Source: Escherichia phage P818
Reading direction: 5' to 3' (one strand)
Sequence record: ON062054.1
DNA length: 49,175 nt
The notes beneath the pieces were generated by a model. It did not search any database. It saw only the letters and a program-made list of their open reading frames with translations, and was not told the origin of the DNA. This document shows positions 1,245 to 46,710 of the stretch, one piece after another; position 1 is the first letter of the stretch, and each line of letters begins with the position of its first letter. The translations under genes and the position numbers were made by a program.

Positions 1245-1261
1245 TTTAGCAAAAAGTGCTA
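1245..1261 (-). promoter_or_regulatory. Dyad motif copy 1 (TAGCA-N5-TGCTA family), upstream of erf/ssb
   Basis: Minus-sense TAGCACTTTTTGCTAAAC overlapping the exonuclease stop; 21 bp then TATAAT (1220-1225) inside a hairpin, then CAAACGAAG box and RBS. Confidence 0.6.
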
Positions 1262-2299
1262 CGCTTCCAGAATGTGCTTGAACTGCTTTTTAATCCAATC
1301 AGGAGTCTCAAGCTCAATCTCTGGTTCGCCGTTGCTGTATGAAGGCCATACGTCATTCGCTTCGCACATTGAGAAAGTATGAATAACGCTCATGTACTGC
1401 GCGCGACCAATCTTAAGCTGATCGCCACTCATCCGGTATGCCATCGGCAAGTAAGGCTCTTTCTTCTCCTGGGCCAGCAAGCGCACAACAACTGGACGCG
1501 TTTCTTCAAAGCACTTGACGAACAGGTCACGCTGCAATGCCATCTTGAGATAATAGCCAAGGTTGAACGCCAGGCGCGGGAACTCTGTCGGGTTAGCGCT
1601 CATTGTCGTTTTGTAATCAGTGATGACGACAATTTCAGGGTGAACCTCAGGATCGTAACCCATGCGGCGTATTGCTTCTGGATCTTTAATGATGTCAACG
1701 TGGTCAAGACGAACCTTGACTTTTACACCGCAAATCACGCCGAATAAAGAATACTCACGGAATGCAGTCTCACTGTTCATGCAAGCATTATGCTCAGGAA
1801 TCATTTCAAGAACCTGACGCATACTTACGCAAGCATCGTAGTCTTCCGCCTTAACCAGTTCCACGCCATCGGCCCATGCCTGACACTGTGCGATCATATC
1901 AATCAGCCACATCACGTTGAGTTCTTCGCCACAATCAACCATCATTTTGATCAGTTCTGGATATTGCTTTCCGCTTGTACCAGTCAGGCCAAATGATTTT
2001 AATTTCGTTGCCAATGCTGCCTGGCTTGTGATTACGTTCTTAATCTCGCTTTCTTTCGGTGCTCGGCGATACTGGCGCTCAAACAGTTCTTTACTCTCAA
2101 AGTTAGTGTGCGACTGCGTACCGAAGACCATCGCTTTAGTCGTCGAGTTCATTTCAAACTTCCACGCCGCAGGGCAAGTACTGTGGATCTTGCTGAGTGA
2201 CGAGCCTGATACATACTCGGCGGTCCACTCATCTTTGCTGTGGTAAAAGTCGTTGCTCATTTCTTCTGACGTGAAGTATTGAAACAGTGGCTTGGTCAT
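1259..2299 (-). CDS. Putative recombination exonuclease
   Basis: 346 aa; first gene of exo-erf-ssb operon; assignment mainly by synteny, weakly by sequence. Confidence 0.5.
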   Translation of the reverse strand: MTKPLFQYFTSEEMSNDFYHSKDEWTAEYVSGSSLSKIHSTCPAAWKFEMNSTTKAMVFGTQSHTNFESKELFERQYRRAPKESEIKNVITSQAALATKLKSFGLTGTSGKQYPELIKMMVDCGEELNVMWLIDMIAQCQAWADGVELVKAEDYDACVSMRQVLEMIPEHNACMNSETAFREYSLFGVICGVKVKVRLDHVDIIKDPEAIRRMGYDPEVHPEIVVITDYKTTMSANPTEFPRLAFNLGYYLKMALQRDLFVKCFEETRPVVVRLLAQEKKEPYLPMAYRMSGDQLKIGRAQYMSVIHTFSMCEANDVWPSYSNGEPEIELETPDWIKKQFKHILEA

Positions 2300-2332
2300 C
2301 TCTTTAATCCTCGTTCGTTGTTGATGTGGGTA

Positions 2333-2360
2333 ACTATACGCGCTTGGTTGCGTTAGTCAA
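2333..2360 (-). promoter_or_regulatory. Canonical sigma70-type promoter for the recombination operon
   Basis: Minus-sense TTGACT-16 bp-TATAGT followed by leader TACCCACATCAACAACGAACGAGG and RBS; no dyad motif here. Confidence 0.55.
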
Positions 2361-2585
2361 GTGGTTACATGTAGATATTTGTAATCACGTGTATGCAATG
2401 GCGTCAGTTACATAAAATGGCTATCCAGACCAGCTATAGCTTGATGTAAACAGCGTGTATATCGTGTATACCATTTTTCACGGAGGGTGCATTGGTATGC
2501 GGGTGATTAAGTACTGTATAAATGTACATATTATAATTTTATAACCGGAACACTCTATAGAAGTAGTTACATGATATACACAGTA

Positions 2586-2690
2586 ATATATATAATAATA
2601 ATAATAAGAGTAAAAGGTTGATATATATAGATATTTTAGTGTAACCATTGCGTAAATCGGCGTAAAAGCGCGTATATCATTTTCAGCGGA
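2586..2690. repeat. Control-region element, copy A
   Basis: (TA)n plus (ATA)n tract followed by GATATTTTAGTGTAACCATTGCGTAA; about 70% identical to 31889-32000. Confidence 0.6.
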
Positions 2691-2716
2691 AGAGATTGTA
2701 TACATCGATTTACATC

Positions 2717-2730
2717 GGTTACGCGTAACC
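2717..2730. promoter_or_regulatory. Perfect 14-bp palindrome GGTTACGCGTAACC
   Basis: Exact inverted repeat in the 2300-2910 noncoding region. Confidence 0.4.
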
Positions 2731-2755
2731 GTGATTTATGGTGGAATTGGCGATA

Positions 2756-2776
2756 AATGGCACGTTTTGCTAAAGA
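2756..2776 (+). promoter_or_regulatory. Dyad motif copy 2 (degenerate: AATGGCAC-N4-TTGCTAAAG)
   Basis: 22 bp downstream is TATATT (2795-2800); upstream of the 2911 gene. Confidence 0.45.
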
Positions 2777-2910
2777 CATCTGACTATCTTTAGGTATATT
2801 TAGGCGCATGGAGGCAATGGTGTCGTCATCTTTCCCTAAATTTCAGGAAAAGGTGGATTTTAATCAATCATTATCCAAATATGGATGATCCAAACTGAAG
2901 AGAGACGAAA

Positions 2911-3573
2911 ATGAATCTAGCATCACTTAATGAAGACGTAAAAATGAACAGTTATGATTTTTTGAATAATGTTGTCAACCCAGCCAGAGATGGGGCGGGA
3001 GAGTCAAAGCTGCGTCACAACTGGTTTCTTGAAAAAATTGAGGATGAGATTGGTGCTGAAAATTTGTGCTACCGAAAATCGGTAGCGCAAAATACGAGCA
3101 ACCCAATGGCAAGGAGTCAGAAAATTGATATTGTGGATTTAAACATGGAGCAAATGCTTCTTGTTGGAATGCGTGAGTCAAAGGTGGTTCGACTCGCGGT
3201 TCTTGATAAGCTTAAGCAGATGCAGGCCACCATCAACAAGCAAGCGGAAGTAATCAGCCAGATGGTTAGCATTGATGAGCTAAAAGAAGCACGCATGATG
3301 CTTGGTGTGGCTAATGCGCAGAACGCTCACCTTAGCCAGCGAATCATTGCTGAGCAGCGCATTAACGAAATCCTCCTTATGGATAAGAGCATCGATGAGA
3401 GGCTTGACCTTCTCGCTTGCGAGGCTCGTCAGTCCTGGGCATCACGTTCCGATGAAATGGAAGATAGGTTTAAGTATGAAGCGCAATGCTTTGCTCTTAA
3501 AGAAAAGACGGAAGCACTGACCGGATTGATCGAGAATAAACTTGGTATCGACATTAAGCCGTTACTGGAAAAG

Positions 3574-3579
<6 letters not shown>
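2911..3579 (+). CDS. Hypothetical protein (possible regulatory or DNA-binding)
   Basis: 222 aa ORF with RBS; coiled-coil-rich C-terminal half; no confident family assignment. Confidence 0.5.
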
Positions 3580-3891
<312 letters not shown>

Positions 3892-4826
3892 TGGCTCAAG
3901 GTATTTATATAGACCTCAATGACGGAAGAAAGCCAATGACAATAACCGCAGGGATGCGTGCTTTAAACTTTGCTGGTAACTTCAATGTCTCCAGTGGTGG
4001 ATTTAGAAAAAATTTTTCAATTCAGGGTAATGAAGGAGCGTCAAGGTTCCTTATCCCTAACAATGGCGCATACTCATTCGAACTTGATAGGGGAGTTGAG
4101 GTTTACTACATAAATGGATTCTCATCAACAGCATCAAGCGGAACAATATCGATTGGCTATGAGAATGGATATTCTGACCGTATAACTCAATTTTCTGGTA
4201 CTGTTGTTGAGGTACTAAGAGCATCGACGGGACAGGGTATTTATGTTGCTGATAGCACTGATTTTACTTCGATAACAACCACTGACAGGTTGCTGGTGTG
4301 CAAGTTTGCCCAGAGGATATCTTTCACCAATACATACACCCTTCCAATTTATGGGATACCATTTGGAAAGTGGAATAACTCAGGTGTATCAGTTGAATAC
4401 AATGGTAGTAACCAGCTGATATGTACAAACATAAATACTGAAGATACTGGTGATACACCAGGAAGTGTCACTATGGATTTGATTATCTTCCAGATGGTCG
4501 CTCCAACCCCTGGTCCTGGACTGAACATATTTAACTCAAATGGTGTTTGCACATTATCAACCGTTACGAGGCCATTGGTTGTTTCTGGATTCATAAACCT
4601 GTCAGGAAACAATCAATACATTGGAGAATCCTACTTCCCGATACTAAGATGTGGATTTAACACCAGGGCCATTCCTGCATACAAGGAGTTAAGGAACAAG
4701 GGAATTGTGATGAGCAATGGTTATGTTCGCTCAGGAACTGGTTCAAGGATTGTCAGATACGAGATAGGAAACAGACCTGACGTAACAATATCAACACCAC
4801 TTCCTTACCTTCCAGATATGTATTAA
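3892..4826 (+). CDS. Hypothetical beta-rich protein co-transcribed with cor
   Basis: 311 aa; ATG right after the cor stop (TAATG) with GGAG RBS; Gly/Ser/Thr/Asn-rich. Confidence 0.6.
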
Positions 4827-4830
4827 AGAT

Positions 4831-4856
4831 AAAGCCCCTTTCGGGGCTTTTGTTTT
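4831..4856. terminator. Bidirectional intrinsic terminator between convergent genes
   Basis: AAAGCCCCTTTCGGGGCTTT hairpin with T-runs on both strands. Confidence 0.7.
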
Positions 4857-7800
4857 AGAAAGTACCTACCACAACTCTTCCTCCTCCAGGCAAGTTAACC
4901 GTTATTCCGTTTCCGTTAATCTGTACCGTATTGTTTGTTCCGTTGAATGCGAATTCACCACTGTTGGCGTACAGTTTACCGCGAATCTCAGCGTTACCAG
5001 ACTTATCAATCCTCCAGCCTGTGCTTCCTGCTACGTAGTTGCTGGACTGAATAAAGTTACCAATCTTCGCGTTAGTAATTGAGCCATCGCCAATTACAGC
5101 GCTTTGGATGATTACGTTTCCGTTCTCTACAACGAAGGGGAGTTGCCATTGACCGGAACCAGAACCAATTCCGTTACTGATTGCGAATCTGTTTGCGTCA
5201 AAAATGAACTGACTGCGAACGTTTCCATCAGTGCCAACTAGCTCCATGCTCATCCCTGCGCTATACTCAACCCCATTATATTTTAGACCTAACTTAACGC
5301 CGTACTGAGCGCCAGCGGATTCTGCATCCACCCAGGAATCAAGTTTTTCATTCAGTGCTGCCTGAGTATCTCCAAGCTGAGCACTCAGAGCTGTATCCGC
5401 CGTGGTCCTTGCTTCCGTTTCGGTGGCTAGTGCCGTCTGAACTTCAGTTATGGAGGCTACGACCTCATCATCAATCTGCGCTTTAAGCTGAGTGAGAGCC
5501 TCTACGCGAGCCTGAGTTTCATCGGCAATAAGATTCACTGCCTGAACGTATTCAGCCTTTCTCTTGCCGTTCTCCTTGGTCATTCGTCGAACGTCAGTAT
5601 CGTTTGCAAGTGCGTTTTCAAGAATTGACTCCGCCTGCGCCTGAATAGCTCCGTTTGACTCAATGGCGTTCTGCTGTAGGTACTTAAACCCCTCGGAATT
5701 CTCGATATCAACCTTTATCTCTCCAATGATTGACTCAACGTCATCGCTTGCCATTCCGCGAACAATGTCAGACCAGTCAGAGGCGTTACCAATCCTGTCT
5801 ACCAATCTTGCCCTGTACCAGTTCACATATCCTGCCGGTAGTGTCGAGTGCCAGTACTCGTACTGAGGGTATGGAATCATTGTTAACAGGCTTGCGTTCT
5901 CCTCGCCTGTGTGACCTCCGGCGCCATTATCTGGTATCTGCTGCAACTCAGTGTAGGCAGTGTCGCCAGAACCTTCAGGGAAACCCCATTTAACCCGTAT
6001 CCCAAACACCTGGTCGTCAGATGCAGTTATGACTGTTGGTTTATCTGGCTTCCCAATCTTACCCGTCAATCCGACGCTGACAACTTCAGACCATGGAGAC
6101 GTGTTTCCACCGCTTGAGATACTCCTTACGCGTACGTGATAATTACCCGCATAAATACCTTCCACTTCAACCTCTGAGCTTGCTGTGCGCGGCACGTTCA
6201 TCCAGTTGCCGTTATCCTTTCGCCACTGCACGTCGTACTTGCTCGCGTACTGAACCTTGTCCCACCCTATCACCATTGTCTCAACGCTCATCCCCTGCAC
6301 AATTCGAGAGTATGATGAAACGATAATGTTTTTTGGTGGCTGCATGTTGTCAGGATCAACAATGCTTGTTGGTCGGTCATCAATATTTACGCCGTAGTCG
6401 ATCTCATCGTATTTGTTTGGATCGTATTCAACCGCCGTGATGCTGTACGTGAACTCATCGTCTCCGTCGCCCTTCGTGATTCCGGTTACAACGTATTGCT
6501 GCAAGGCCACATCAGTGCGGTCGATTGCGAACACTGTGTTGGGTTGAACATCAAAACCGAATCCAACGTTAAGCTCAATGGTTTTCCCGTCCGCAGAAAC
6601 TTTTGAAATCGTCCGGCGCACCGGATTTCCGTCAGCCTTGTTCACGATAATGAAATCACCAGCGCGCGCATCGACCTTAAAGTGTGTGAACACTTGCAGG
6701 CCAGAAACTTCCATCACACGACCTGATAACGAAAGCGTCAGGTTACTTGACCAGAAGTTATCAGCGATTGCTACCACGTCGCCAATCATCGGAATCATAC
6801 CCTCAAGGCCAGTAGCAAAACTCACCGTCGTGCTGCGAAGGTTTGTTTTGAGAACCCAACGGCCCCGTCGATTCGCTTCACTGCGTCGAGTACACCCGAT
6901 CGCCGTGATGCTTGTCGGATTATGACCGAAGCGTAATGAGGCGTTAAGGTCGAATACCCCCTCAATGTCCTGGCTGTACATGTTCTGCTCGTCGTCGAAC
7001 GTGACGTTGCAGGTTGTGTACATGCTTTTTTCACTTGCGAACGTATAGGCAAATGAGCCATCAACGACGTTGTCGTTAGTGAAAATATATGAAGCCTCTC
7101 TCGGTCGGTCGATGACAATTGAGAGGCTCTCACCGTTCCAGAAGCTCATCCCTCGGAAGATTGAGCAAATATCTCGAACCAGATTGTAAGCCTCAACCTG
7201 AGATTGGATTACCACATCGCAAAGGTAGCGAGGCTCCAACCCTCCGTGACCGTCAGGAACCTTCTGATCGCAGTATTGACCAGCATCATATAGCGACCAC
7301 TTATCAACGGCGATCCCCAACTCTCTTTGGTCGAGTCCGTAGCGCTGATTGGTGATCAAATCATAAAGCACCCACGCCGGATTATTTGACCATGCTTTTT
7401 TAAAACTCCCATCCCATGTGCCGCTATATTCACGTAGCTCTGGGTTGTAGTTGCTCGGAACGTTAATGAGCTTCCATTTCTTTTTCGTGCTAATGCTTGG
7501 GATTTGCGTGAATAGATCGCTGTTAAACTCGACGTAAACAAGACCAGTCAGAGGGTAACGGAATTTAGCATCAACCACTTCGGCATAAGACTGAATGTTT
7601 ATCGTGTCAACGACGCGCGAATCAGTTGAATCAGCCGTAACGCGTCGCACACGCAATAGAACCTGACTATTGAACTTTGGGAGGTCGATTCGTTTTGTTT
7701 TGTCATATCCGCTAATTGTCTTACCGTCGATTACGTCTGATAAAACTTCCTGGTAGTTCCCGCCATCAACCGCCATATCTACGGCCCACTTCACAACCAC

Positions 7801-8220
7801 GCCGACCATATCGCCGTTTTCTTTCGTGGTAACGCCGCGAGGCATCAGGATTTTTACGCGGACTGCTGATAGCTGCTTATTCGTTACCGAGATCACGTAA
7901 GGCGTCGTTGTTTTCAATTCACGACCTACAGTGAACTCAGCCGCCGTGTCGTTGAATCCTTTGATGTAATCCTGAGTCTGCGTTCCAGGGCGAAACTCAG
8001 CCGTTACGCCTTCATAGTTAACCTCGCCGGATGGTGCAATTACAGGAACATCATTAAGATATAAGTCCTTTAATGAGAAATTAGCATCAACCTCGCCATC
8101 ACTAACGGCGAGCAAAACCTTAATCTTGTTGATTGAGATCAGGTTATCTTCCATCTCCTGTGGGGTATGCGGCTTGCTGCTGCCACCCTTTCGGCCCGTC
8201 ACTACATTATTTTTAATCAT
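4855..8220 (-). CDS. Central tail fiber / host specificity protein (lambda J-like)
   Basis: 1121 aa, last gene of the tail operon after I/K/L/M homologs. Confidence 0.8.
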   Translation of the reverse strand: MIKNNVVTGRKGGSSKPHTPQEMEDNLISINKIKVLLAVSDGEVDANFSLKDLYLNDVPVIAPSGEVNYEGVTAEFRPGTQTQDYIKGFNDTAAEFTVGRELKTTTPYVISVTNKQLSAVRVKILMPRGVTTKENGDMVGVVVKWAVDMAVDGGNYQEVLSDVIDGKTISGYDKTKRIDLPKFNSQVLLRVRRVTADSTDSRVVDTINIQSYAEVVDAKFRYPLTGLVYVEFNSDLFTQIPSISTKKKWKLINVPSNYNPELREYSGTWDGSFKKAWSNNPAWVLYDLITNQRYGLDQRELGIAVDKWSLYDAGQYCDQKVPDGHGGLEPRYLCDVVIQSQVEAYNLVRDICSIFRGMSFWNGESLSIVIDRPREASYIFTNDNVVDGSFAYTFASEKSMYTTCNVTFDDEQNMYSQDIEGVFDLNASLRFGHNPTSITAIGCTRRSEANRRGRWVLKTNLRSTTVSFATGLEGMIPMIGDVVAIADNFWSSNLTLSLSGRVMEVSGLQVFTHFKVDARAGDFIIVNKADGNPVRRTISKVSADGKTIELNVGFGFDVQPNTVFAIDRTDVALQQYVVTGITKGDGDDEFTYSITAVEYDPNKYDEIDYGVNIDDRPTSIVDPDNMQPPKNIIVSSYSRIVQGMSVETMVIGWDKVQYASKYDVQWRKDNGNWMNVPRTASSEVEVEGIYAGNYHVRVRSISSGGNTSPWSEVVSVGLTGKIGKPDKPTVITASDDQVFGIRVKWGFPEGSGDTAYTELQQIPDNGAGGHTGEENASLLTMIPYPQYEYWHSTLPAGYVNWYRARLVDRIGNASDWSDIVRGMASDDVESIIGEIKVDIENSEGFKYLQQNAIESNGAIQAQAESILENALANDTDVRRMTKENGKRKAEYVQAVNLIADETQARVEALTQLKAQIDDEVVASITEVQTALATETEARTTADTALSAQLGDTQAALNEKLDSWVDAESAGAQYGVKLGLKYNGVEYSAGMSMELVGTDGNVRSQFIFDANRFAISNGIGSGSGQWQLPFVVENGNVIIQSAVIGDGSITNAKIGNFIQSSNYVAGSTGWRIDKSGNAEIRGKLYANSGEFAFNGTNNTVQINGNGITVNLPGGGRVVVGTF

Positions 8221-8256
8221 GATGTTTAGCCTTTCGTGCGATTTATCGAAGTTTCA

Positions 8257-8264
8257 TTATACAG
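8257..8264 (-). promoter_or_regulatory. Extended -10 element (TGTATAAT) upstream of J
   Basis: Minus-sense TGTATAAT just downstream of an internal terminator hairpin. Confidence 0.35.
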
Positions 8265-8265
8265 G

Positions 8266-8292
8266 CACAAAAAAACCCGCGCAAGGCGGGTT
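8266..8292 (-). terminator. Intrinsic terminator/attenuator between I and J
   Basis: Minus-sense ACCCGCCTTGCGCGGGT hairpin followed by TTTTTTT. Confidence 0.55.
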
Positions 8293-8296
8293 TAAC

Positions 8297-10352: not shown

Positions 10353-10396
10353 GGGATTACCTCCAATAAAAAAGCCCCCCGTTAGGAGGCTTTATT

Positions 10397-10744: not shown

Positions 10745-10747
10745 TTA

Positions 10748-13654: not shown

Positions 13655-13665
13655 AAAACCCCCAT

Positions 13666-13690
13666 ACGAAAAAAGCGCCCGTAGGCGCTA
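13666..13690 (-). terminator. Hairpin/attenuator between chaperone and tape measure genes
   Basis: AGCGCCCGTAGGCGCT palindrome with flanking T/A runs. Confidence 0.45.
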
Positions 13691-16735: not shown

Positions 16736-16740
16736 TTGAT

Positions 16741-26019: not shown

Positions 26020-26074
26020 TTCTGCTTCCTCGTTCGTTTCGATGGGGTAACTATACAGCTACCCCGATTATGAG

Positions 26075-26093
26075 TTTTAACAAAAAGTGCTAT
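26075..26093 (-). promoter_or_regulatory. Dyad motif copy 4
   Basis: Minus-sense TAGCACTTTTTGTTAAAA overlapping upstream stop; 22 bp then TATAGT inside a hairpin, then TACCCCATCGAAACGAA box. Confidence 0.6.
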
Positions 26094-26818: not shown

Positions 26819-26874
26819 CTTTCTTTCCTCTCGTTTGGTATGAGCTAACTATAACAAAACCCGCCGGGGCGGGT

Positions 26875-26894
26875 TTAGCAATTCGTGCTATTTA
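26875..26894 (-). promoter_or_regulatory. Dyad motif copy 5
   Basis: Minus-sense TAA-ATAGCACGAATTGCTAAA, then terminator-like hairpin CCCGCCCCGGCGGG plus T-run in the 22-bp spacer, then TATAGT. Confidence 0.6.
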
Positions 26895-28176: not shown

Positions 28177-28232
28177 TTTAACTTCCTTTCGTGTAGTTGA
28201 TGTGGGGATTATACCAGTCAGGATGAATCCCC

Positions 28233-28253
28233 TTTTAATAAATCGTGCTATTT
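28233..28253 (-). promoter_or_regulatory. Dyad motif copy 6
   Basis: Minus-sense AAATAGCACGATTTATTAAAA overlapping stop; 23 bp then TATAAT. Confidence 0.55.
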
Positions 28254-28592: not shown

Positions 28593-28657
28593 GGTGACAT
28601 CCTCAGTTGTTTGTGTTCACTTGACAGGAGACACTATAGCTAATGTCTCCGAGCAAG

Positions 28658-28676
28658 TTTTAACAAAAAGTGCTAT
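28658..28676 (-). promoter_or_regulatory. Dyad motif copy 7
   Basis: Minus-sense AATAGCACTTTTTGTTAAA overlapping stop; 22 bp then TATAGT inside hairpin GGAGAC...GTCTCC. Confidence 0.6.
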
Positions 28677-29459: not shown

Positions 29460-29527
29460 TTGTTAATCCTCTGTGATTGGTTGCCTCTGCTTCAATAAGG
29501 CAACTATATCAAATGGCCTTGCGGAAG

Positions 29528-29548
29528 GTTTAGCAAAAAGTGCTATTT
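29528..29548 (-). promoter_or_regulatory. Dyad motif copy 8
   Basis: Minus-sense AAATAGCACTTTTTGCTAAAC; 22 bp then TATAGT. Confidence 0.6.
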
Positions 29549-30217: not shown

Positions 30218-30272
30218 AATCATTTCCTCTTCGTTGTTGATAGGGTAATCATAGCTGACTACCCGATTTATT

Positions 30273-30292
30273 GTTTAGCAATTCGTGCTATT
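30273..30292 (-). promoter_or_regulatory. Dyad motif copy 9
   Basis: Minus-sense AATAGCACGAATTGCTAAAC overlapping stop; 22 bp then TATGAT then TACCCTATCAACAACGAAG box. Confidence 0.6.
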
Positions 30293-32231: not shown

Positions 32232-32249
32232 AATAGCACTTTTTGCTAA
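32232..32249 (+). promoter_or_regulatory. Dyad motif copy 10
   Basis: AATAGCACTTTTTGCTAA; 23 bp then TATTGT then TACCTCATCGAAACGAAGGAG and ATG at 32301. Confidence 0.55.
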
Positions 32250-32300
32250 TGACCGATCAGGTGTGATTCGCTATTGTTACCTCATCGAAACGAAGGAGAT

Positions 32301-32735
32301 ATGAAGATGAAGAACGGCGTAATTTACAAGCACAGTGACGGAACTACTCGGTTCGTCACGACCTCAGGCCGGATGTATATTTGGGCTTACGGAGCCTGGC
32401 GGTTCAAGGTACAGATGCATGAGGCGACGTATAATATGTTCCTCCGCGCTGCACGACTCAAAGATAACAAGGTGTTCGTTGCGAAGAGTCGCAAGGTATT
32501 CATGGATAATCGCGTCGCGTTCGATCCTATTGACTACCAGGCGGTTGAGTTCACTGGTCTAAGGTTGAGTAAAATTCGGTTGTTGCGCAGCGAACAGATT
32601 GCAATGATTCAGCAAAATTCGGCTATTGCGCACGCCACGGAAGCACGACATCGCCTCCTGACTGGTTATCAGCCCATCATCACGCCGACGCCGTTTTACG
32701 TGCATAAGCAACGACCACCGAAAATCCATAAATAG
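32301..32735 (+). CDS. Hypothetical early protein
   Basis: 144 aa; start refined to ATG after AAGGAG RBS. Confidence 0.55.
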   Translation: MKMKNGVIYKHSDGTTRFVTTSGRMYIWAYGAWRFKVQMHEATYNMFLRAARLKDNKVFVAKSRKVFMDNRVAFDPIDYQAVEFTGLRLSKIRLLRSEQIAMIQQNSAIAHATEARHRLLTGYQPIITPTPFYVHKQRPPKIHK

Positions 32736-32749
32736 CACTAATTGCTAAA
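32730..32749 (+). promoter_or_regulatory. Dyad motif copy 11
   Basis: AAATAGCACTAATTGCTAAA overlapping stop TAG; hairpin in spacer; CATAAT; CATCGAAACGAAG box. Confidence 0.6.
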
Positions 32750-32813
32750 CGAAGCCTCACGGATTGAGGCATAATCATTTCATCGAAACGAAGTACACAA
32801 AGAGGAAGTAAAA

Positions 32814-33663: not shown

Positions 33664-34229
33664 ATAGAAAAAGAAGTCCAGACGGAAAATTTTCTGGTGA
33701 TCCGCTACTACCTGGAGGTTTTCATAATTGCAACTCATGCGGAATTAAAAAGGAGGCTGACGATAAAAACTTTAGAACAATAAATAAAGGAAAAACATGC
33801 GAGAGCCTAAGCAAAACTTGCAGAAAATGCGAGTATCAAAAAGGAAAGGATAAACACGCAAGGAACATGAAAAACCCTGAATTTGCAGATGCTAGAAGGG
33901 AAAGGTGCAGGAACTGGAGGAGCAACAACAGAAGTAAGGTGGCGCTTAAAAATTATCAAGCAATAGATAAAAAGAAAGGACTTACATGCACCATGACAAT
34001 TGATGATGTTGAGGAGTTGCAGTCAATGCCATGCTACTATTGCGGAGATACGGATCGGGTTGGTGCTGACAGGATTGACAACTCACTTGCTCACACGCGC
34101 AAAAACTGCCTTCCATGTTGCCCTGATTGTAATATCTGTAGGAGTAACACTTTTTCAGTTGATGAGATGATGGTGATAGGCAAAGCGATAAGACTCGTAA
34201 AGAAATCAAGAAATAGCACGAATTGCTAA
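33660..34229 (+). CDS. HNH-type endonuclease / zinc-finger protein
   Basis: 189 aa; multiple CxxC pairs and RIDNSLAHTRKNCLPCCPDCN motif. Confidence 0.6.
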   Translation: MNRKRSPDGKFSGDPLLPGGFHNCNSCGIKKEADDKNFRTINKGKTCESLSKTCRKCEYQKGKDKHARNMKNPEFADARRERCRNWRSNNRSKVALKNYQAIDKKKGLTCTMTIDDVEELQSMPCYYCGDTDRVGADRIDNSLAHTRKNCLPCCPDCNICRSNTFSVDEMMVIGKAIRLVKKSRNSTNC

Positions 34230-34230
34230 A
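34211..34230 (+). promoter_or_regulatory. Dyad motif copy 12
   Basis: AAATAGCACGAATTGCTAAA (translated as NSTNC-stop); terminator hairpin in 22-bp spacer; TATATT; CATCCCATCGAAACGAA box. Confidence 0.6.
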
Positions 34231-34294
34231 GCCCTTCGGGGCTTTTCCTGTATATTCATCCCATCGAAACGAAACACACTAAAGGAAAATAATC

Positions 34295-38216: not shown

Positions 38217-38267
38217 GATTGAATCCTCTGTAAGTGAGATATGAATATAGCGCCATATAGGCGCTAT

Positions 38268-38289
38268 GTTTTAACAAAAAGTGCTATTT
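38268..38289 (-). promoter_or_regulatory. Dyad motif copy 13
   Basis: Minus-sense TAA-ATAGCACTTTTTGTTAAAAC; hairpin AGCGCC...GGCGCT in 22-bp spacer; TATATT. Confidence 0.6.
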
Positions 38290-40702: not shown

Positions 40703-40757
40703 GATGATTCCTCGTCTCGTTGGTATGAAAGAAGTATACCCGCGCGGTGGCGGGTAT

Positions 40758-40777
40758 GTTTAGCAATTCGTGCTATT
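40758..40777 (-). promoter_or_regulatory. Dyad motif copy 14
   Basis: Minus-sense TAA-TAGCACGAATTGCTAAAC; hairpin CCCGCCACCGCGCGGG in 22-bp spacer; TATACT. Confidence 0.6.
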
Positions 40778-41012
40778 ACGCAAAATCTTCGGGGCAAGCA
40801 AGCATATAGTCTTCAAGGTCTTTCCGTATTGCACGGCTCCAGCTATTAAGTGGCTTATCTCTAATCTCTTCAAATGACATATCCAGATCTGAGAACTCCC
40901 AAGCGTCACCATTAAACCCCGCTTTAGTTAGCTCCTTGCAGACGATCGCGCGGAATAAAAGATACTGACCATTGTGGTTTAGATTAATTTTCATACCGCT
41001 CATTTTAAACAC
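40776..41012 (-). CDS. Hypothetical small protein
   Basis: 78 aa; 8-nt overlap with methylase gene. Confidence 0.4.
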   Translation of the reverse strand: MFKMSGMKINLNHNGQYLLFRAIVCKELTKAGFNGDAWEFSDLDMSFEEIRDKPLNSWSRAIRKDLEDYMLACPEDFA

Positions 41013-41733
41013 TCCGTTTACGTGGTTTCTTACGGCTTACGCCAGGGCAAATATCAGCGACGCTAACATATGTAGTCTTCTGCGTCTCGCCTTCTTTCAG
41101 TTTTCGCATTACAAAAATAACAGAGCCTTTATTATTACCATCGACAGGCTTTCCGGTCAGGCCTGATATGAATGCCAGCCTTCCGGTTCGGCAGTATTCC
41201 TGCTGGTCAATTTCTGTTATCTCCGCCTCAATCCAGATGATTTCAGCCGCGTTGCGTCTGGCTTCTGCAAACCACGCCGTTGAGTTATCACCAGGAAGCA
41301 ACATATCAATCTGATTGTTGTGTTCCATCTGCTCAATCGCTTTCTTCACGAAAGGATCTGGATGTGAGTATGGCGGGTTAAGCCATATGTGCTTATTGCT
41401 ACCCCAACAAATTTTGAGACAGTTCACTTGCTCGCTGTAGAACTTTTCGCAAACAGCATTGTTAGCGCTGGCGGCGGCGTCAATGTCATACTTCCCATAA
41501 CGCGACTCCATCCATGAGATCACTTCTCTGTCAGTGGCCCATAGGTCACGAACTGCGTCAGGCGTCTTGCTTCCGGCGTATCTGTTTCCAGTTACCTGAT
41601 AGAAGGTGTCTGGCTTAACCGCCTGGTAATGACCATTTCCAGGAACAAGCGCATTAGTAACAAAATTTTCACGCTCGATCTGCTCAAAGATAACGAATGC
41701 GTCATGAGTATCCTTGTCGTTTGAGTCGATCAT
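41005..41733 (-). CDS. DNA N6-adenine methyltransferase (phage Dam-like)
   Basis: 242 aa; NPPY catalytic motif. Confidence 0.75.
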   Translation of the reverse strand: MIDSNDKDTHDAFVIFEQIERENFVTNALVPGNGHYQAVKPDTFYQVTGNRYAGSKTPDAVRDLWATDREVISWMESRYGKYDIDAAASANNAVCEKFYSEQVNCLKICWGSNKHIWLNPPYSHPDPFVKKAIEQMEHNNQIDMLLPGDNSTAWFAEARRNAAEIIWIEAEITEIDQQEYCRTGRLAFISGLTGKPVDGNNKGSVIFVMRKLKEGETQKTTYVSVADICPGVSRKKPRKRSV

Positions 41734-41734: not shown

Positions 41735-42007
41735 TTATTTAACCTCGGTAACTTTGCAGTTATTAACAGCGACGAACCCGCCGACGCTAACTTTGACCTG
41801 ACTTTCAGTCACGTTGTAAACTGCCTTACCCAAGAAAGTTTGCAGTTCGTAGTGATCGCCTTCACGCTCAATAACAACGCCCTTGTCTGAAACAATCTGC
41901 GACTTGGTTACTGTGAAGGATTCCTTACCGCAATCGTAAAACTTGGTATCTTCTGCACAGCCTGCCATTGCCACAACTGCTAGTAAAGCGATGATTGACT
42001 TTTTCAT
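41735..42007 (-). CDS. Putative lipoprotein
   Basis: 90 aa; signal peptide MKKSIIALLAVVAMAGC with lipobox Cys; AAGGAAAA RBS. Confidence 0.5.
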   Translation of the reverse strand: MKKSIIALLAVVAMAGCAEDTKFYDCGKESFTVTKSQIVSDKGVVIEREGDHYELQTFLGKAVYNVTESQVKVSVGGFVAVNNCKVTEVK

Positions 42008-42071
42008 TTTGTTTTCCTTGGTTGGTTACTTCGTTTCGATGAGGTGATAATACACAACCTCACCGATTCGC

Positions 42072-42092
42072 CTTTAGCAATTAGTGCTATTT
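42072..42092 (-). promoter_or_regulatory. Dyad motif copy 15
   Basis: Minus-sense AAATAGCACTAATTGCTAAAG overlapping stop; 22 bp then TATTAT in hairpin; CACCTCATCGAAACGAAG box. Confidence 0.6.
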
Positions 42093-42515
42093 TGAAATCA
42101 TTTCTTTGAATGCTGCAAGAAAACCCTCGCGACCGTAGGCTACAGCTGCGAAGCCTCCTGATTCTCTTACGCTTTTTAGGAAAGACTTCTGTTCATCACT
42201 TACGTGTTTTGCTTGTTTTTTACCAGCTCTCTTTAGTTCTATGGCACCAAACGGATAACTACCGCGCAATGAATCAGGTATTAAAAACATACAGTCTGAT
42301 ACCCCTTTAAGTAGTCCTTTAGCTTGGTCTTTCCTTGCTTGCCCAAATGTTTTCTTGTTCTCGTTAACTACATGAAAGAATACCATTTCTGGATAGTTGT
42401 ATTTAACCCAATCAGAGCAAAAGATTTGTTCGTCATCCTCCTTAGGGCATGACTTAACCGGGCCAGGGTAAAACTCAATGTAATCAACTTTGTCTGTAAT
42501 TTTCATATCAATCAT
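42087..42515 (-). CDS. VRR-NUC domain nuclease
   Basis: 142 aa; PD-(D/E)xK-like D...ELK pattern; 8-nt overlap with helicase gene. Confidence 0.55.
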   Translation of the reverse strand: MIDMKITDKVDYIEFYPGPVKSCPKEDDEQIFCSDWVKYNYPEMVFFHVVNENKKTFGQARKDQAKGLLKGVSDCMFLIPDSLRGSYPFGAIELKRAGKKQAKHVSDEQKSFLKSVRESGGFAAVAYGREGFLAAFKEMISK

Positions 42516-44502
42516 CCATAGTAAAAGATTTGTTTGCGATAATATCTTGAGACTTCTGGTTCTTACGGTGTGTAATCCTTAATGGAGCTCGGAAAAGGTG
42601 AGCATTAGTCATAATCATTTTAGCATTACGCAATCTGCCAATTCTAAAAGCCTCGGTCCTGTTCTCTATGTGAGCCGAGCAAAATGCTTTCCATTTTACA
42701 GAGCAAACTCGATGGTCTGACTCTGGGAAAAACGTCTCATATGCTCGGAACCTATCCCCACTGTGAGCCATGACCTCATATGAAGCAACAATACCTGACT
42801 GGTTCTTTGTTAAACAAATCTTGAAATCATAAACTCGCAACCAGTCCCCTTTGCGGTACATTTTCCCAGATAACTTAGCGTTTGGGTCTATTAGCATCTC
42901 TCCGCAGCATCGACAGTTTTTAGCTGCAACATCATTCTTCTCTCTACAACCTTTCTTAATAATAACTTTTGTCTGTTGGTCCTCTATATCTTCACACAAG
43001 CGAAACTGAAAGAAGTGCTCACAACGCTTCCCGTCAATTACGTTATTGCAACGACGAGCAAAAGGAGAGTTCTCATAACTACAGGCCGGACATATTCTTG
43101 GCCCATCACCGCCTTTGCGTGAAGACTTAAATTTCTGGTCCTGAACTTCCTCTATGATTGGGTCAAAGTATAATTCTGCCATGTCATCAAGGGTGCCAGC
43201 GAAGTCTAGTACCACGTGATCATCCTTAACCATCCCCATCTCCTTGTGCTTCTTCTTTAGGATACGCATACCTCGACCAAGCAACTGAATAAGCAGGGTG
43301 ATGCTTCCAACCTTGCGAAGAATTATTGAAGTATCCCACGGCGGGACGTTCACGCCGGTTGTGAGGCAACCAATCTGAAAGATGAATTTATACTTACCTT
43401 CAGCTGCGTCAGAAAGAATCTCACGACGCTTTTTCTCACCAGTAGAGTCAGTTACTATAGCCCAGGTTACACCCTCAGGAAGCGCCGCGGCTGCTTCCTC
43501 GCAATGCCGCTTGCCTGAGCAAGTTACTAGTGCTGCGTTACGATTTTCCATAAACTTGGCTGCGAACTGCATAATCTTTTGAGTCATGGACTGGTTTTGG
43601 TGAATTTTTTCCTGCATCGCATCCATTTCTTTCTTGCTAAAGTCTTTCACTCCATCACTTCCATCTGGAGCAAACTCGCTAAGGTCATAACCTAAATCGC
43701 CAACCTCGCCGTAAACAGTTGGCACAACAAACCGCAAATCAACCAGGTAATTGGTTGGCACCTGAATCACTGTTTTGCGCCAAAATCCACGGATATTTGG
43801 ATTGCTAACAACGATATGATCATTGTTGCGATACGGGCTACCAGTTAGGCCAAAGATACGAAGCTCTCGACCATACTTCTCACGACAACGACGTTTCATT
43901 TCAGTAATGATTAGCGTGTACTGCGCACGACCCGTGCCAAGCAATCCAGTATTAACGCCTTCCTTAAAAACCTTCTCACCTTTCTTTGTGCTCATTTGCT
44001 CAAATGTTTCTTCGTTCTCCTCGGCTTCAACGATATCCATGTGATCGACCATGTGGCACTCATCTATAGCTATAACGGCAGGAACATAGTCACCAAGCCC
44101 CTTAAATAAGCCGTTAGCCGCAGTTCCTTCGCTAGCAACTATGGTTGGGTAATAAACTGATTTAACGTTAAGGCCAGCGCAATAGACGCTATTACGAATG
44201 CCAAAATTGCGAAGCTCTTCGCTGTCCTGGCTCACGATCTCAGACTGGCGAGATAGCACCATATAAGGAAGCCCTAACTGTTCCATTCTCTTACCGATCA
44301 TGGCGAGAATGATAGTTTTACCAGCAGAAACCGACAGGTCTGCTATGAATGGGCTTTCATACTTCCCGATAGCCTTACCGATCGCATCAAATGTAACGCA
44401 CTGGAAATCGTAAGGAGTTATCTCTCCAAACGAGAATTCTCTCTTAATCTCTTCCATGCGATTTTTATCAAAGTTGGCGACCATTTTTTCAACGGGTAAC
44501 AT
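42508..44502 (-). CDS. SF2 ATP-dependent DNA helicase with C-terminal zinc-ribbon region
   Basis: 664 aa from ATG with AAGGTG RBS (ORF track start is upstream TTG); Walker A GKT, DECH box, Cys-rich C-terminus. Confidence 0.8.
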   Translation of the reverse strand: MLPVEKMVANFDKNRMEEIKREFSFGEITPYDFQCVTFDAIGKAIGKYESPFIADLSVSAGKTIILAMIGKRMEQLGLPYMVLSRQSEIVSQDSEELRNFGIRNSVYCAGLNVKSVYYPTIVASEGTAANGLFKGLGDYVPAVIAIDECHMVDHMDIVEAEENEETFEQMSTKKGEKVFKEGVNTGLLGTGRAQYTLIITEMKRRCREKYGRELRIFGLTGSPYRNNDHIVVSNPNIRGFWRKTVIQVPTNYLVDLRFVVPTVYGEVGDLGYDLSEFAPDGSDGVKDFSKKEMDAMQEKIHQNQSMTQKIMQFAAKFMENRNAALVTCSGKRHCEEAAAALPEGVTWAIVTDSTGEKKRREILSDAAEGKYKFIFQIGCLTTGVNVPPWDTSIILRKVGSITLLIQLLGRGMRILKKKHKEMGMVKDDHVVLDFAGTLDDMAELYFDPIIEEVQDQKFKSSRKGGDGPRICPACSYENSPFARRCNNVIDGKRCEHFFQFRLCEDIEDQQTKVIIKKGCREKNDVAAKNCRCCGEMLIDPNAKLSGKMYRKGDWLRVYDFKICLTKNQSGIVASYEVMAHSGDRFRAYETFFPESDHRVCSVKWKAFCSAHIENRTEAFRIGRLRNAKMIMTNAHLFRAPLRITHRKNQKSQDIIANKSFTMDD

Positions 44503-44521
44503 ATATAAACACCTTATAAAT

Positions 44522-44550
44522 TTGGATTTGTTGCGTTTCATTGGTATAAT
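44522..44550 (+). promoter_or_regulatory. Sigma70-type promoter for the 44601 HTH gene, overlapping the helicase promoter -10
   Basis: TTGGAT-17 bp-TATAAT with TGG extension; leader CCATCGAAACCAA then motif copy 16 then RBS GAGGTG. Confidence 0.5.
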
Positions 44551-44569
44551 AACAGCCATCGAAACCAAT

Positions 44570-44589
44570 GTTTAACAAAAAGTGCTATT
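44570..44589 (-). promoter_or_regulatory. Dyad motif copy 16 (shared by divergent helicase and HTH promoters)
   Basis: Minus-sense AATAGCACTTTTTGTTAAAC; 21 bp then TATTAT (44546-44551), 44-nt leader to helicase ATG; same site lies after the predicted start of the plus-strand promoter. Confidence 0.6.
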
Positions 44590-44600: not shown

Positions 44601-45074
44601 ATGAATGCAACTGATAAGCGTACTCTTAACGGCAATAACGGAACTATCCGCACAGAAGATAAGAAGCAGCGTAAGCGACCGTCAGGTTACTATGTTCTCA
44701 AGGATGAAGTAAAGGCCGGATTAAGAGCGCGACTTGATATTGTATTTGAGTTCTACGGCAGCAAGGCGAACATGGCTAAGCAATTAAAGGTTACTCGACA
44801 GGCCGTTGAAGAATGGTTTAAGCGTGGAATGATGTCGGCACGCGGCGCTCAACTGGCGCACAACAGATATAAGCGAACTGGCGAAGGGTTCCGCGCTACA
44901 TTCTGCCGCCCTGATCTGCAATTCGACGGGAACGGCAAGCCGCTAACGCTGCGTTGCAAAAAGCGTCACATGCTGCGCGTCGTCACCGAGGCTGAACTAG
45001 CCACTAAGCCTGAATGTCGCTCATGGCGAAAAATTAAAGCAGCAAACGAAGCAGCACGGAAAGCTAAAGAATGA
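44601..45074 (+). CDS. HTH DNA-binding protein (Cro/YdaS-like), candidate regulator
   Basis: 157 aa; HTH-like segment SKANMAKQLKVTRQAVEEWFKRG; basic C-terminal half. Confidence 0.55.
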   Translation: MNATDKRTLNGNNGTIRTEDKKQRKRPSGYYVLKDEVKAGLRARLDIVFEFYGSKANMAKQLKVTRQAVEEWFKRGMMSARGAQLAHNRYKRTGEGFRATFCRPDLQFDGNGKPLTLRCKKRHMLRVVTEAELATKPECRSWRKIKAANEAARKAKE

Positions 45075-45080
45075 CAATCA

Positions 45081-45096
45081 AGGGGCGCTAGCCCCT
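45081..45096. terminator. Hairpin between convergent genes (weak terminator)
   Basis: AGGGGCGCTAGCCCCT palindrome; no strong T-run. Confidence 0.35.
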
Positions 45097-45105
45097 TCAT
45101 CTGAT

Positions 45106-45654
45106 CTATCTATCTCCGTCACACCCAAACTCACCATGATAATAATTACTGGCTTTTAAGTACGCTTCACGCGCCGACTCCTTTGTGGTATGCCTTCCTA
45201 GCCATATTTTTTTATTATTAACCCATATCCACGCCGTGTACTTCCCTGTTTGCTTGCAGAATCCAACGCCTTTTACTCCTGATGTATTGTGAGATGGTTT
45301 TTTCATATTTCTATTGTTCTCAGATGATGACGCTTCCCTTAGGTTTTCTATCCTATTGTCAGTCCTGATCCCGTTTTTATGATCTATATACTTAGAAGGC
45401 CATTCACCTTTACAAAGCGCCCATGAAACCCTATGGCATTTAACGTCGAATCCGAAAAATCTGAAAACCTTATAACCAGATTTATGGACCGTTCCGGCCT
45501 CATCTCCAGATTTAACCCTATTAGATGTGCTTTTTACCCAAATTATAACTCCGTTGTCGTATTTAAGGTAATTCCTAAGCATATCAATACTAATCAATGA
45601 CTCTTTTGCCTTCATTAAATCAAAGTCTTTGCTCATTTCATTTTCCTCATTCAT
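45106..45654 (-). CDS. HNH endonuclease with AP2-like domain (copy 3)
   Basis: 182 aa; YIDHKNGIRTDNRIENLREASSSENNRN motif. Confidence 0.8.
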   Translation of the reverse strand: MNEENEMSKDFDLMKAKESLISIDMLRNYLKYDNGVIIWVKSTSNRVKSGDEAGTVHKSGYKVFRFFGFDVKCHRVSWALCKGEWPSKYIDHKNGIRTDNRIENLREASSSENNRNMKKPSHNTSGVKGVGFCKQTGKYTAWIWVNNKKIWLGRHTTKESAREAYLKASNYYHGEFGCDGDR

Positions 45655-45697
45655 GTGTTATGCTTTTAATCATACCAACCGTAACATGAGATAGTCA

Positions 45698-46639
45698 ATG
45701 ATGGATATGTATCAAAAAGAGGAAGTTATACCTTACATGAAGGGTCTTTGGAGGGAAGCTCTGCAATCAATATGTGGCCTTGATAACTCATACTTCACGA
45801 AGCGACATGGGCCATGCCCGCATTGCTTTGGAAAGGACCGTTTCCGGTGGACTGACGAACTAGAATCCCCTGGTGACGGCGGCGCGATCTGTAACGGATG
45901 TGGTAACGATAAAGGCGTCGGCTGGATGATGAAACTGACTGGTGAGCCTTACAGTGAAGTGATTAACATCCTTGGTAGATTCCTTGGTAAAGTTCCGCAG
46001 GATTACAAAGCTAAGGCTTACCGCAGGGCGTCTCGCGTACCGGAGAAAGGCCTTGGCAGGATGGCGGATCATGAGTCGTGCGTATCTGTAATGGAGCGCA
46101 CAGAAAAGCGCGAGAGCACCGATTTAAGCGTGTATGAGTGCCTAACCGAAGATTCATATGATGTTGGCGTAAAAGTGCGTCAGAATGGCACTGAGGAGCT
46201 AATACACGCACTACCGTGCTACATGGTCCACCATGACGGAATTGATGAGGATATGTGTAACGTCATGTTTGCTTATGATAATGGCGAATACACTTTCCTT
46301 GCGCGTGATTATTCTCGCGGCTCAGTGGTTAAGCTGGGGAGTGGTGAGGATGATGCAGCTATATATATGACAAGCGATCTGATTGATGGTTATCGTGTGA
46401 AGATGGCGACCAGTCAGGAAGTGTGGGTGACTTTCTCCCCTGAGAATCTTGAGATTGTTGCTTATCGTTATCGTGGCGATCGAGAGTTGCGAGTTGCTTG
46501 TGCGGCTGACGATTTGAGAACGCTTTACATGGCTGATGAGAGAGATTTGAAGGTCGTCGTGCCGAACGGTGGAAACTTCAAGATGGGCCTTGAGCGAAAG
46601 CTATATACGCCGCAGGATCTGATAGATAAGTATTCATGA
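45698..46639 (+). CDS. Putative DNA primase (zinc-binding N-terminal domain)
   Basis: 313 aa; CPHC...CNGC zinc-ribbon-like motif near N-terminus; adjacent to helicase. Confidence 0.55.
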   Translation: MMDMYQKEEVIPYMKGLWREALQSICGLDNSYFTKRHGPCPHCFGKDRFRWTDELESPGDGGAICNGCGNDKGVGWMMKLTGEPYSEVINILGRFLGKVPQDYKAKAYRRASRVPEKGLGRMADHESCVSVMERTEKRESTDLSVYECLTEDSYDVGVKVRQNGTEELIHALPCYMVHHDGIDEDMCNVMFAYDNGEYTFLARDYSRGSVVKLGSGEDDAAIYMTSDLIDGYRVKMATSQEVWVTFSPENLEIVAYRYRGDRELRVACAADDLRTLYMADERDLKVVVPNGGNFKMGLERKLYTPQDLIDKYS

Positions 46640-46644
46640 CAATT

Positions 46645-46668
46645 ACCCGCTACGGCGGGTTTTTTTAT
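46645..46668 (+). terminator. Intrinsic terminator after primase gene
   Basis: ACCCGCTACGGCGGGT hairpin followed by TTTTTTT. Confidence 0.75.
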
Positions 46669-46692
46669 TCCTTTGTTATGATACAATGCTCT

Positions 46693-46710
46693 TTAGCAAT
46701 TCGTGCTAAA
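46693..46710. promoter_or_regulatory. Dyad motif copy 17 (perfect palindrome TTTAGCA-ATTCG-TGCTAAA)
   Basis: Only perfect copy; lies between an extended -10-like TGATACAAT (46679-46687) and the tail fiber RBS. Confidence 0.6.

Follow-up and report, generated by a model that had tools for sequence, protein, structure and literature searches.

A marbox-like repeat in the promoters of the non-structural operons of the T1-like Escherichia phage P818

The DNA of Escherichia phage P818 (record ON062054.1; the whole stretch of 49,175 nucleotides is called the window here) contains a 20-bp element that recurs between its genes. What is this repeat, and which protein reads it? An original prediction, made from the letters of the sequence, described a dyad-symmetric motif at candidate activator-dependent early promoters and named early helix-turn-helix (HTH) proteins for binding tests. 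The observation of the repeat as a promoter part holds. The element itself is most likely the consensus asymmetric marbox, the binding site of three AraC-family regulators of E. coli that activate stress responses and antibiotic resistance: MarA, SoxS, and Rob.

The window is a T1-like siphophage genome (Drexlerviridae), and its nearest records are Escherichia phages p111, P817, and GaoY1-9D. A structural block on the minus strand (4855-24575) is flanked on both sides by non-structural genes. The repeat as such is already published. The 2024 re-annotation of phage TLS reported 18 intergenic "21-nt direct repeats" (aaATAGCACnnnTTGnTAAAA), also found in T1, Rtp, and Rogue1 (PMC11447400). These repeats are oriented with transcription, precede start codons by about 76 nt, and fall into AAA, TTT, and GAA subgroups (PMC11447400). 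The authors suggested stoperators, enhancer sites, or UP elements, listed the function among the open questions, and found only three sigma-70-like promoters (PMC11447400). The TLS direct repeat is the same element as the repeat of the window. The TLS paper notes neither the link to a -10 hexamer at a fixed distance nor the marbox identity (PMC11447400), and the latter is the new point.

The repeat and the promoters around it

The exact core TAGCA-N5-TGCTA occurs 11 times in the window, against 0.20 expected. We scanned the window with a 20-column position matrix built from the copies themselves, and the scores were bimodal. Seventeen sites scored 24.9-31.4 bits, the next site 16.2 bits, and the noise stayed below 14 bits, whereas shuffled sequence gave about 4 matches at 8 bits or more with the same matrix. 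The seventeen copies of the original prediction were thus recovered exactly, with a clear gap below them, and all 17 are intergenic as it had claimed. In the gene-sense alignment over 20 bp, the copies read ATAGCAC-(G/T)(A/T)(A/T)-TTG(C/T)TAAA(A/C)n, and the consensus of the 16 promoter-linked copies is AAATAGCACtatTTGcTAAA.

The placement relative to the genes is regular. The order 5'-GCAC...AAA-3' points toward a downstream -10 hexamer and gene in 16 of the 17 copies; the supposed rule that every copy is oriented with its flanking genes fails only at 46690-46709, which is antisense to both neighbours. With the open reading frames (ORFs) that we called, 11 copies share bases with the stop codon of the upstream gene (9 of them through the TAG at motif positions 2-4) and 2 others abut it, which comes near the fifteen overlaps predicted. 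A start codon follows 48-67 nt past the 20-mer in 13 copies. The late block was predicted to be free of the motif; it contains no strong copy but does hold a degenerate one at 8223-8242. The sixteen marbox-like promoters lead nearly all non-structural operons, and the functions under their control are recombination, replication, nucleotide metabolism, dam, superinfection exclusion, and lysis.

A TAnnnT-type hexamer (TATAGT, TATAAT, TATATT, and similar, with one CATAAT) lies downstream of 16 of the 17 copies. Its distance from the 20-mer is 17-19 bp in all sixteen and 18 bp in 12, which corresponds to the predicted 21-23 bp when counted from TTGCTA. An A is located 7 nt beyond the hexamer in 12 of the 16 copies. 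Start sites throughout are those predicted from the sequence, and with them the motif centre is calculated at about -40.5 to -42, in agreement with the class II activator position (near -42) that had been proposed. The same distance is kept outside the window. In a set of 487 unique copies from about 40 related viral contigs, 62% have TAnnnT exactly 18 bp past the 20-mer and 75% have it at a distance of 17-19 bp, and its frequency is 0-5% at all other offsets.

There is no -35-like hexamer in the related-site set, where the mean match to TTGACA is 1.1-2.4 of 6. TTGCTA was considered as the -35 hexamer and rejected, as it already had been, since a spacer of 21-23 bp is outside the working range. 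Extrusion of the hairpins described below, which would restore 17 bp, was also rejected because the hairpins differ in location and size. A generic sigma-70 scan of the early region gave no promoter excess (38 against 36 expected), which agrees with the three sigma-70-like promoters found by the TLS authors. Ordinary sigma-70 promoters occur elsewhere, as expected: one at 2360-2333 and, in the late block, sigma-70-like ones ahead of terL (24060-24032) and of the major capsid gene (18078-18049). The late block (4800-24700) is also enriched in intrinsic terminators, with 33 against 17.8 expected. Judged from this arrangement, each strong promoter-linked copy most likely serves a sigma-70 promoter as its activator site, the promoter having a good -10 but no -35.

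Most copies have a stable inverted repeat between the motif and the predicted start (mean z -2.4), and z is between -2.9 and -5.4 in eight of them. A terminator-like stem lies inside the spacer at 26872, 34213, 40757, and 38268, while at 26074, 28657, 30272, and 42071 the -10 hexamer occupies the loop and the stem reaches as far as -1. A U tract follows the hairpin in only some copies, and some -10 hexamers have a TGn extension. The hairpin is present only in read-through RNA, so the unit can be read as a fused terminator and promoter. Its order (stop codon, marbox, hairpin, -10, leader) would make a compact cassette, in which the embedded hairpin might stop or trim the read-through transcript from upstream. 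The conserved leader box of the original prediction, (C)ATCGAAACGAA, is present, but it begins at the predicted-start A in only about half of the copies. It is seen at the predicted +1 of promoters 3576, 26074, 32233, 32732, 34213, 42071, and others, and is kept in T1-like phages and the T4-like phage Lw1 and not in the podovirus IME_EC2.

Asymmetry and identity of the element

The dyad did not withstand comparison of the 487 related sites. The near-invariant blocks are GCAC (positions 4-7) and TAAA (15-18), 7 bp apart, and positions 8-10 are restricted to G/T, A/T, and A/T. Little or no variation is seen at G4, C5, and G13, and C7 is kept in 95% of the sites. At position 14, 69% of the sites have C and 29% have T, whereas the dyad partner of this position, G4, never varies. 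Across the five dyad pairs, no compensatory change was found in the 487 sites, and the deviations are one-sided. The element is asymmetric and its dyad incidental.

MarA-type proteins bind the marbox as monomers, with one HTH unit reading CAC(G/T) and the other reading AAA seven bases away. The asymmetric conservation of the phage sites is consistent with such monomer binding. For the identification, we used consensus sequences from host papers, not derived from the phage. With no more than one mismatch allowed, the marbox consensus GCAHWWWWTGYYAAA (PMC6900184) matched 16 times where 1.36 matches were expected. Of these, 15 are copies of the motif, 8 without any mismatch. The consensus from chromatin immunoprecipitation sequencing of MarA, gcactaattgctaaa (PMC5684230), is found exactly at 32735-32749 and 42073-42087 and with one mismatch in five more copies. 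At three mismatches or fewer, it gave 17 matches against 1.9 expected. A further form, AYnGCACnnWnnRYYAAAY, attributed to Martin and colleagues (1999), has 7 exact matches against 0.07 expected.

The comparison also works in the opposite direction. Applied to E. coli K-12, the phage matrix placed the micF, marRAB, and fumC marboxes each at the top of its region and in the known orientation. The inaA, nfo, sodA, and fpr regions gave weak matches only, because these host sites are too degenerate for so narrow a matrix, and the comparison informs on micF, mar, and fumC alone. The copy at 2757 (ATGGCACGTTTTGCTAAAGA) shares 17 of its 20 positions, and 14 of the 15 in the core, with the mar marbox of E. 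coli (ATGCCACGTTTTGCTAAATC).

Host class II mar/sox/rob promoters have a forward site that overlaps the -35 region and clusters at -41, a canonical -10, and no -35 match, and cryo-electron microscopy of such promoters places the activator where sigma region 4 would sit. The micF promoter of E. coli is laid out as ACAGCACTGAATGTCAAAAC, 18 bp, TAGAAT, 7 nt, and the annotated 5' end, and the phage layout is the same. The phage copies show the marbox consensus (GCAC ... TGYYAAA), the forward orientation, the overlap with the -35 region with a centre near -41, and a canonical -10 with no -35. As far as sequence can define it, a class II mar/sox/rob promoter is thus present in all its features. The shared 20-bp asymmetric site of GCAC and (Y)AAA, forward and 18 bp from the -10, extends to the MarA/SoxS/Rob (RamA) promoters of micF, fumC, and lpxC P2. 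The phage differs from the host in that its sites lie on a virulent phage and are consensus-perfect and near-uniform, whereas host sites are degenerate. There are sixteen of them in 49 kb, and they are fused to stop codons and hairpins.

Copies in the window and in related phages

The sixteen putative marbox promoters, one orphan copy, and one degenerate copy are listed below with the 20-mer, the spacer to the -10 hexamer where noted, and the genes that each would drive.

1213..1262, minus strand: putative promoter; 20-mer 1243-1262 GTAGCACTTTTTGCTAAACA, 17 bp spacer, -10 TATAAT 1220-1225, predicted start near 1213; for erf (526-1182; ERF domain) and an SSB-like gene (35-487); the upstream stop is the motif TAG
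2757..2807, plus strand: putative promoter; 20-mer 2757-2776 ATGGCACGTTTTGCTAAAGA, 18 bp spacer, -10 TATATT 2795-2800; for the anti-repressor-like gene 2911-3579
3576..3627, plus strand: putative promoter; 20-mer 3576-3595, 19 bp spacer, -10 TATAGT 3615-3620, leader CATCGAAACGAA; for a phage lipoprotein gene (3661-3891) and a DUF6453 gene (3882-4826)
26043..26093, minus strand: putative promoter; 20-mer 26074-26093, 18 bp spacer, -10 TATAGT 26050-26055 followed by the leader box; hairpin GGGGTAGCT/TACCCC with the -10 in its loop (z -4.2); for small ORFs from 26019 down
26841..26891, minus strand: putative promoter; 20-mer 26872-26891 ATAGCACGAATTGCTAAACC, -10 TATAGT 26848-26853; intrinsic-terminator hairpin CCCGCCCCGGCGGGTTTT in the spacer
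28201..28251, minus strand: putative promoter with the most divergent copy, ATAGCACGATTTATTAAAAG (24.9 bits), -10 TATAAT 28208-28213; for a polynucleotide-kinase phosphatase gene (27559-28176)
28626..28676, minus strand: putative promoter; 20-mer 28657-28676, -10 TATAGT 28633-28638 within the hairpin GGAGACA/TGTCTCC (z -5.4)
29496..29546, minus strand: putative promoter; 20-mer 29527-29546 ATAGCACTTTTTGCTAAACC, -10 TATAGT 29503-29508
30241..30291, minus strand: putative promoter; 20-mer 30272-30291 ATAGCACGAATTGCTAAACA, -10 TATGAT 30248-30253 within the hairpin GGGTAGTC/TACCC (z -5.2)
32233..32284, plus strand: putative promoter, the first rightward one; 20-mer 32233-32252, 19 bp spacer, -10 TATTGT 32272-32277, leader box
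32732..32782, plus strand: putative promoter; core 32735-32749 equal to the published MarA consensus GCACTAATTGCTAAA, -10 CATAAT 32770-32775, leader box
34213..34263, plus strand: putative promoter; 20-mer 34213-34232, terminator AAGCCCTTCGGGGCTTTT in the spacer, -10 TATATT 34251-34256, leader box; for 34295-34648 and a DUF3987 helicase gene (34720-36303)
38237..38287, minus strand: putative promoter; 20-mer 38268-38287, hairpin ATAGCGCC/GGCGCTAT (z -4.6), -10 TATATT 38244-38249; for a DUF7244 gene, a holin-position gene (37696-37911), and an endolysin gene (37210-37695)
40726..40776, minus strand: putative promoter; 20-mer 40757-40776 ATAGCACGAATTGCTAAACA, -10 TATACT 40733-40738 overlapped by the terminator-like hairpin ATACCCGC/GCGGGTAT
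42040..42090, minus strand: putative promoter; core 42073-42087 equal to the published MarA consensus GCACTAATTGCTAAA, -10 TATTAT 42047-42052, leader box; for 41735-42007 and dam (41005-41733)
44539..44588, minus strand: putative promoter; 20-mer 44569-44588, 17 bp spacer, -10 TATTAT 44546-44551; for a helicase gene (42508-44568) and a VRR-NUC gene, back to back with the HTH regulator gene 44601-45074
46690..46709, minus strand: orphan strong copy TTAGCACGAATTGCTAAAGA (27.8 bits), no -10 hexamer at 17-19 bp
8223..8242, minus strand: degenerate copy ATCGCACGAAAGGCTAAACA (16.2 bits), abutting the ATG at 8220 of a gene for a 1121-amino-acid tail-tip protein

The orphan copy runs antisense to its neighbours, the genes for the primase and the tail fibre, and points at the primase terminator; its T1 counterpart is at 34902-34921 on the plus strand. 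From its position, it could be a decoy, a roadblock, or a remnant. In the degenerate copy, AAGG is the ribosome-binding site of the tail-tip gene, and T1 has a counterpart at 25021-25040; this copy may be a relic or a functional site. Next to the promoter at 38237..38287, the gene 38288-39418 (minus strand) encodes a 376-amino-acid "DNA repair exonuclease" (phosphoesterase) with an N-terminal HTH-like segment. The annotation of its homologue in Klebsiella phage KP36 mentions a sigma-70 region-4-like motif, and a Pfam search of the P818 product gave no match at an E-value of 0.01 or below.

The original prediction had called for a comparison with related T1-like genomes, and this bears the element out. 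T1 has 21 copies (at least 20 bits) and KP36 has 15, with consensus and spacing identical to those of the window. T1 also has strong copies antisense to late genes at 15067-15086, 18831-18850, and 101-120; the late block of the window has none. The podovirus IME_EC2 (genus Murrayvirus) has six canonical copies with site and spacing unchanged. Its structural genes are unrelated, and it shares with the window only the helicase (43% identity), VRR-NUC, exonuclease, Erf, Dam, and primase. The site appears frozen while the phages diverge to 40% protein identity, and it equals the host consensus; both are what a constraint imposed by the host would predict.

Cassettes of the T1 type are further found in T4-like phages, namely Lw1 and the related RB16 and RB43, where they are interspersed with small ORFs in the neighbourhood of dexA and dda. 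The identity is 82-88% over 60-72 bp. In Lw1, a Pseudotevenvirus, they lie at 10276-10295 and 10892-10911 in the hyperplastic region, with marbox, hairpin, -10, and leader, and the small ORF gp016 near them has T1-like homologues. Such cassettes seem, from their sequence likeness, to move between phage families. Vibrio phage K223, which has a homologous replication module, has no marbox; K223 is a myovirus with 37% helicase identity, too distant to be decisive. It has a repeat of its own, ATGACACGGAT, clustered in two control regions (9526-9866 and 46876-47226).

Candidate readers and competing explanations

Which protein reads the site depends first on what the phage encodes. A tblastn search with MarA, SoxS, and Rob found no homologue in the phage, and Pfam searches of 54 non-structural ORFs found no HTH_18/AraC, MotA, or AsiA domain. 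A phage MarA/AraC homologue as the reader was therefore rejected. As regulators, PHROGs gave only an "anti-repressor" and a "transcriptional regulator". These are the annotated anti-repressor-like protein (2911-3579) and the conserved HTH "transcriptional regulator" (44601-45074); the latter is phrog_2856, with equivalents in T1 (ST23), KP36 (gp55), and Motto (Motto_30). Since the phage encodes no AraC-type protein, the likely readers are host proteins. With somewhat better than even confidence, drawn from the sequence comparisons above, we favour the view that host MarA, SoxS, or Rob acts at sixteen marbox promoters of class II. The idea of a dyad read by a dimeric early HTH protein of the phage loses ground here, because dyad conservation is absent, the host marbox fits, and no AraC-family protein is encoded.

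We infer binding and activation as follows. A host MarA/SoxS/Rob-family monomer near -41 would replace the -35 contact: the activator would occupy the -35 region and contact RNA polymerase in place of sigma region 4. Among the three host proteins, Rob, which is constitutive, could be the reader, with MarA and SoxS once they are induced, and RamA would take this part in Klebsiella.

Several points weigh against a host activator. Our literature searches, covering any T1-like phage, found no binding, start-site, or host-mutant data. They also found no link of marboxes, MarA, SoxS, or Rob to T1-like phages and no transcript-start data for a T1-like phage; the one paper found to treat both Drexlerviridae and RNA sequencing used a T5-like phage for the latter. 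T1-like phages grow fast on unstressed laboratory strains. Levels of MarA and SoxS are low in such strains, and most Rob is said to be sequestered there (PMC5684230). Consensus-strength sites might compensate for this, or infection might release Rob. The phage copies are also far more uniform than host marboxes (for example at A3, T11, and T12). Uniformity could reflect a more specific reader and could equally reflect homogenisation of the cassettes or the use of TAG as a stop codon. The apparent absence of a shared phage regulator was judged by sequence similarity and, in Lw1, from the first 50 kb of the genome. Finally, 18 copies are kept in phage Motto (ON843697), for which plaques are reported on Pseudomonas aeruginosa but on none of the E. 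coli strains tried. If this host label is right, an Enterobacterial activator cannot be essential. The label is doubtful, because Motto has 45% G+C and T1-like records exist under Campylobacter and Stenotrophomonas names. T1-like genomes of about 45% G+C under non-enteric host names may be real host jumps or contamination with T1-like coliphages.

These points lead to the possibility of a non-AraC activator encoded by the phage, such as the HTH regulator 44601-45074 or a small early protein, with the marbox likeness being incidental or mimicry. The repeat and this regulator both occur in all Drexlerviridae examined, and the uniform copies, the reported host of Motto, and the quick growth in unstressed cells would fit such a reader. 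We nevertheless consider it rather unlikely. IME_EC2 has its six canonical copies without the regulator, which a profile search of that phage did not find even at an E-value of 10. A match of 15 out of 15 to the host consensus, combined with the spacing and orientation of micF, is very unlikely by chance. A dimeric HTH protein predicts conservation of the dyad, and there is none. The regulator moreover has better candidate operators in the palindromes at 32150-32215. These three operator-like palindromes (ATTGCAATAGATGCAAT, TTGCTATATGTGCAAT, and ATTGCAATAGCTGCAA) belong to the non-coding control region 31606-32230 and closely precede the first of the rightward marbox promoters.

A reader may also be unnecessary. 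The promoters might work without a factor, and the repeat might be kept as a homology patch for shuffling cassettes or as a contact for the alpha subunit like an UP element, which the TLS authors proposed (PMC11447400). The PeSLs (promoter-early stem-loops) of T4-like phages (PMC2839356, PMC4122927), to which the P818 cassettes are analogous, likewise pair an intergenic promoter with a terminator-like stem-loop (often GGGG...CCCC) beside small ORFs and are apparently mobile. The cassettes that are 82-88% identical over 60-72 bp in an unrelated T4-like phage, and the near-consensus -10 hexamers, some with the TGn extension, speak for the same idea. PeSL promoters, however, have the full sigma-70 consensus and A/T-rich upstream sequence, whereas the phage cassettes have the marbox instead of a -35, so that the full -35 and -10 consensus that marks a PeSL is absent from them. 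A homology patch needs neither the invariant GCAC and TAAA blocks with free positions between them nor the fixed distance of 18 bp to the -10. An UP element should consist of A/T tracts between about -40 and -60 with no conserved G or C, and the conserved G4, C5, G13, and C7 led us to reject it. Promoters without a -35 and mostly without the TG extension would also be expected to be weak alone, and we regard factor-free promoters as quite improbable.

In T4 middle promoters, the MotA box (with AsiA) replaces the -35 beside the same sigma-70 -10, and the MotA box TGCTTtA is superficially like TTGCTAAA. The MotA box, however, is centred at -30, whereas TTGCTAAA lies near -36, and the GCAC block has no MotA counterpart. 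Appropriation of the MotA/AsiA type was rejected because the 54 ORFs contain no homologues and the box position is wrong.

It is a slim prospect that the main role of the sites is directed at the host or is that of a brake. They would then be a sponge that, once the phage DNA replicates, draws MarA, SoxS, and Rob off host defence genes, or else oriented roadblocks for a bound protein, similar to stoperators. In favour of this are the seventeen sites of consensus strength in each of many genome copies and the orphan copies without a -10 (46690 and three antisense copies in the T1 late block). Stoperators were also proposed by the TLS authors (PMC11447400), and those of mycobacteriophage L5 are likewise many asymmetric intergenic sites in a single orientation relative to transcription. 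L5 stoperators, however, bind a repressor and block elongation in the prophage, whereas the present phage is virulent. Neither a sponge nor a roadblock needs what is seen here, with 16 of the 17 copies, and 75% of the 487 related sites, locked to a -10 at the activating distance. On this ground stoperators were rejected; action on the host or as a brake is compatible with the host-activator explanation as a side effect. An RNA motif, in which the upstream message would end in a UAGCA/UGCUA hairpin for stability, processing, or termination, is hardly credible: the stop-codon overlap means that it would be transcribed by read-through and a 5-bp stem is possible, but the stem is weak (-3.7 to -1.3 kcal/mol), no covariation accompanies it, the window has no Rfam match and no tRNA, and the AAA tail and the fixed -10 distance are left unexplained.

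Returning to host activators, we see about an even chance that the wiring of nearly all non-structural operons is family-wide among virulent phages, with Drexlerviridae, Murrayvirus podoviruses, and a few T4-like cassettes tied to MarA, SoxS, Rob, and RamA. The marbox identity would settle what the TLS authors listed as an open question (PMC11447400) and make the function directly testable. Marbox promoters would also explain why conventional searches find nearly no promoters in the early regions. If the host activators are the readers, bile salts, salicylate, oxidants, and antibiotics would influence phage development, and resistance mutants in marR, soxR, or ramR would give it a boost. As it replicates, the phage DNA would also take up the MarA/SoxS/Rob/RamA activators and possibly titrate the efflux response of the host. 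Interactions between phages and antibiotics would then be predicted, including better growth on mar, ram, and sox mutants. The cassettes are compact, consensus-strength, putatively activator-dependent promoters and could serve as parts. The growth of common coliphages, and of the Klebsiella weberviruses used in phage therapy, would be tied to the regulators that, when overproduced, cause clinical multidrug resistance.

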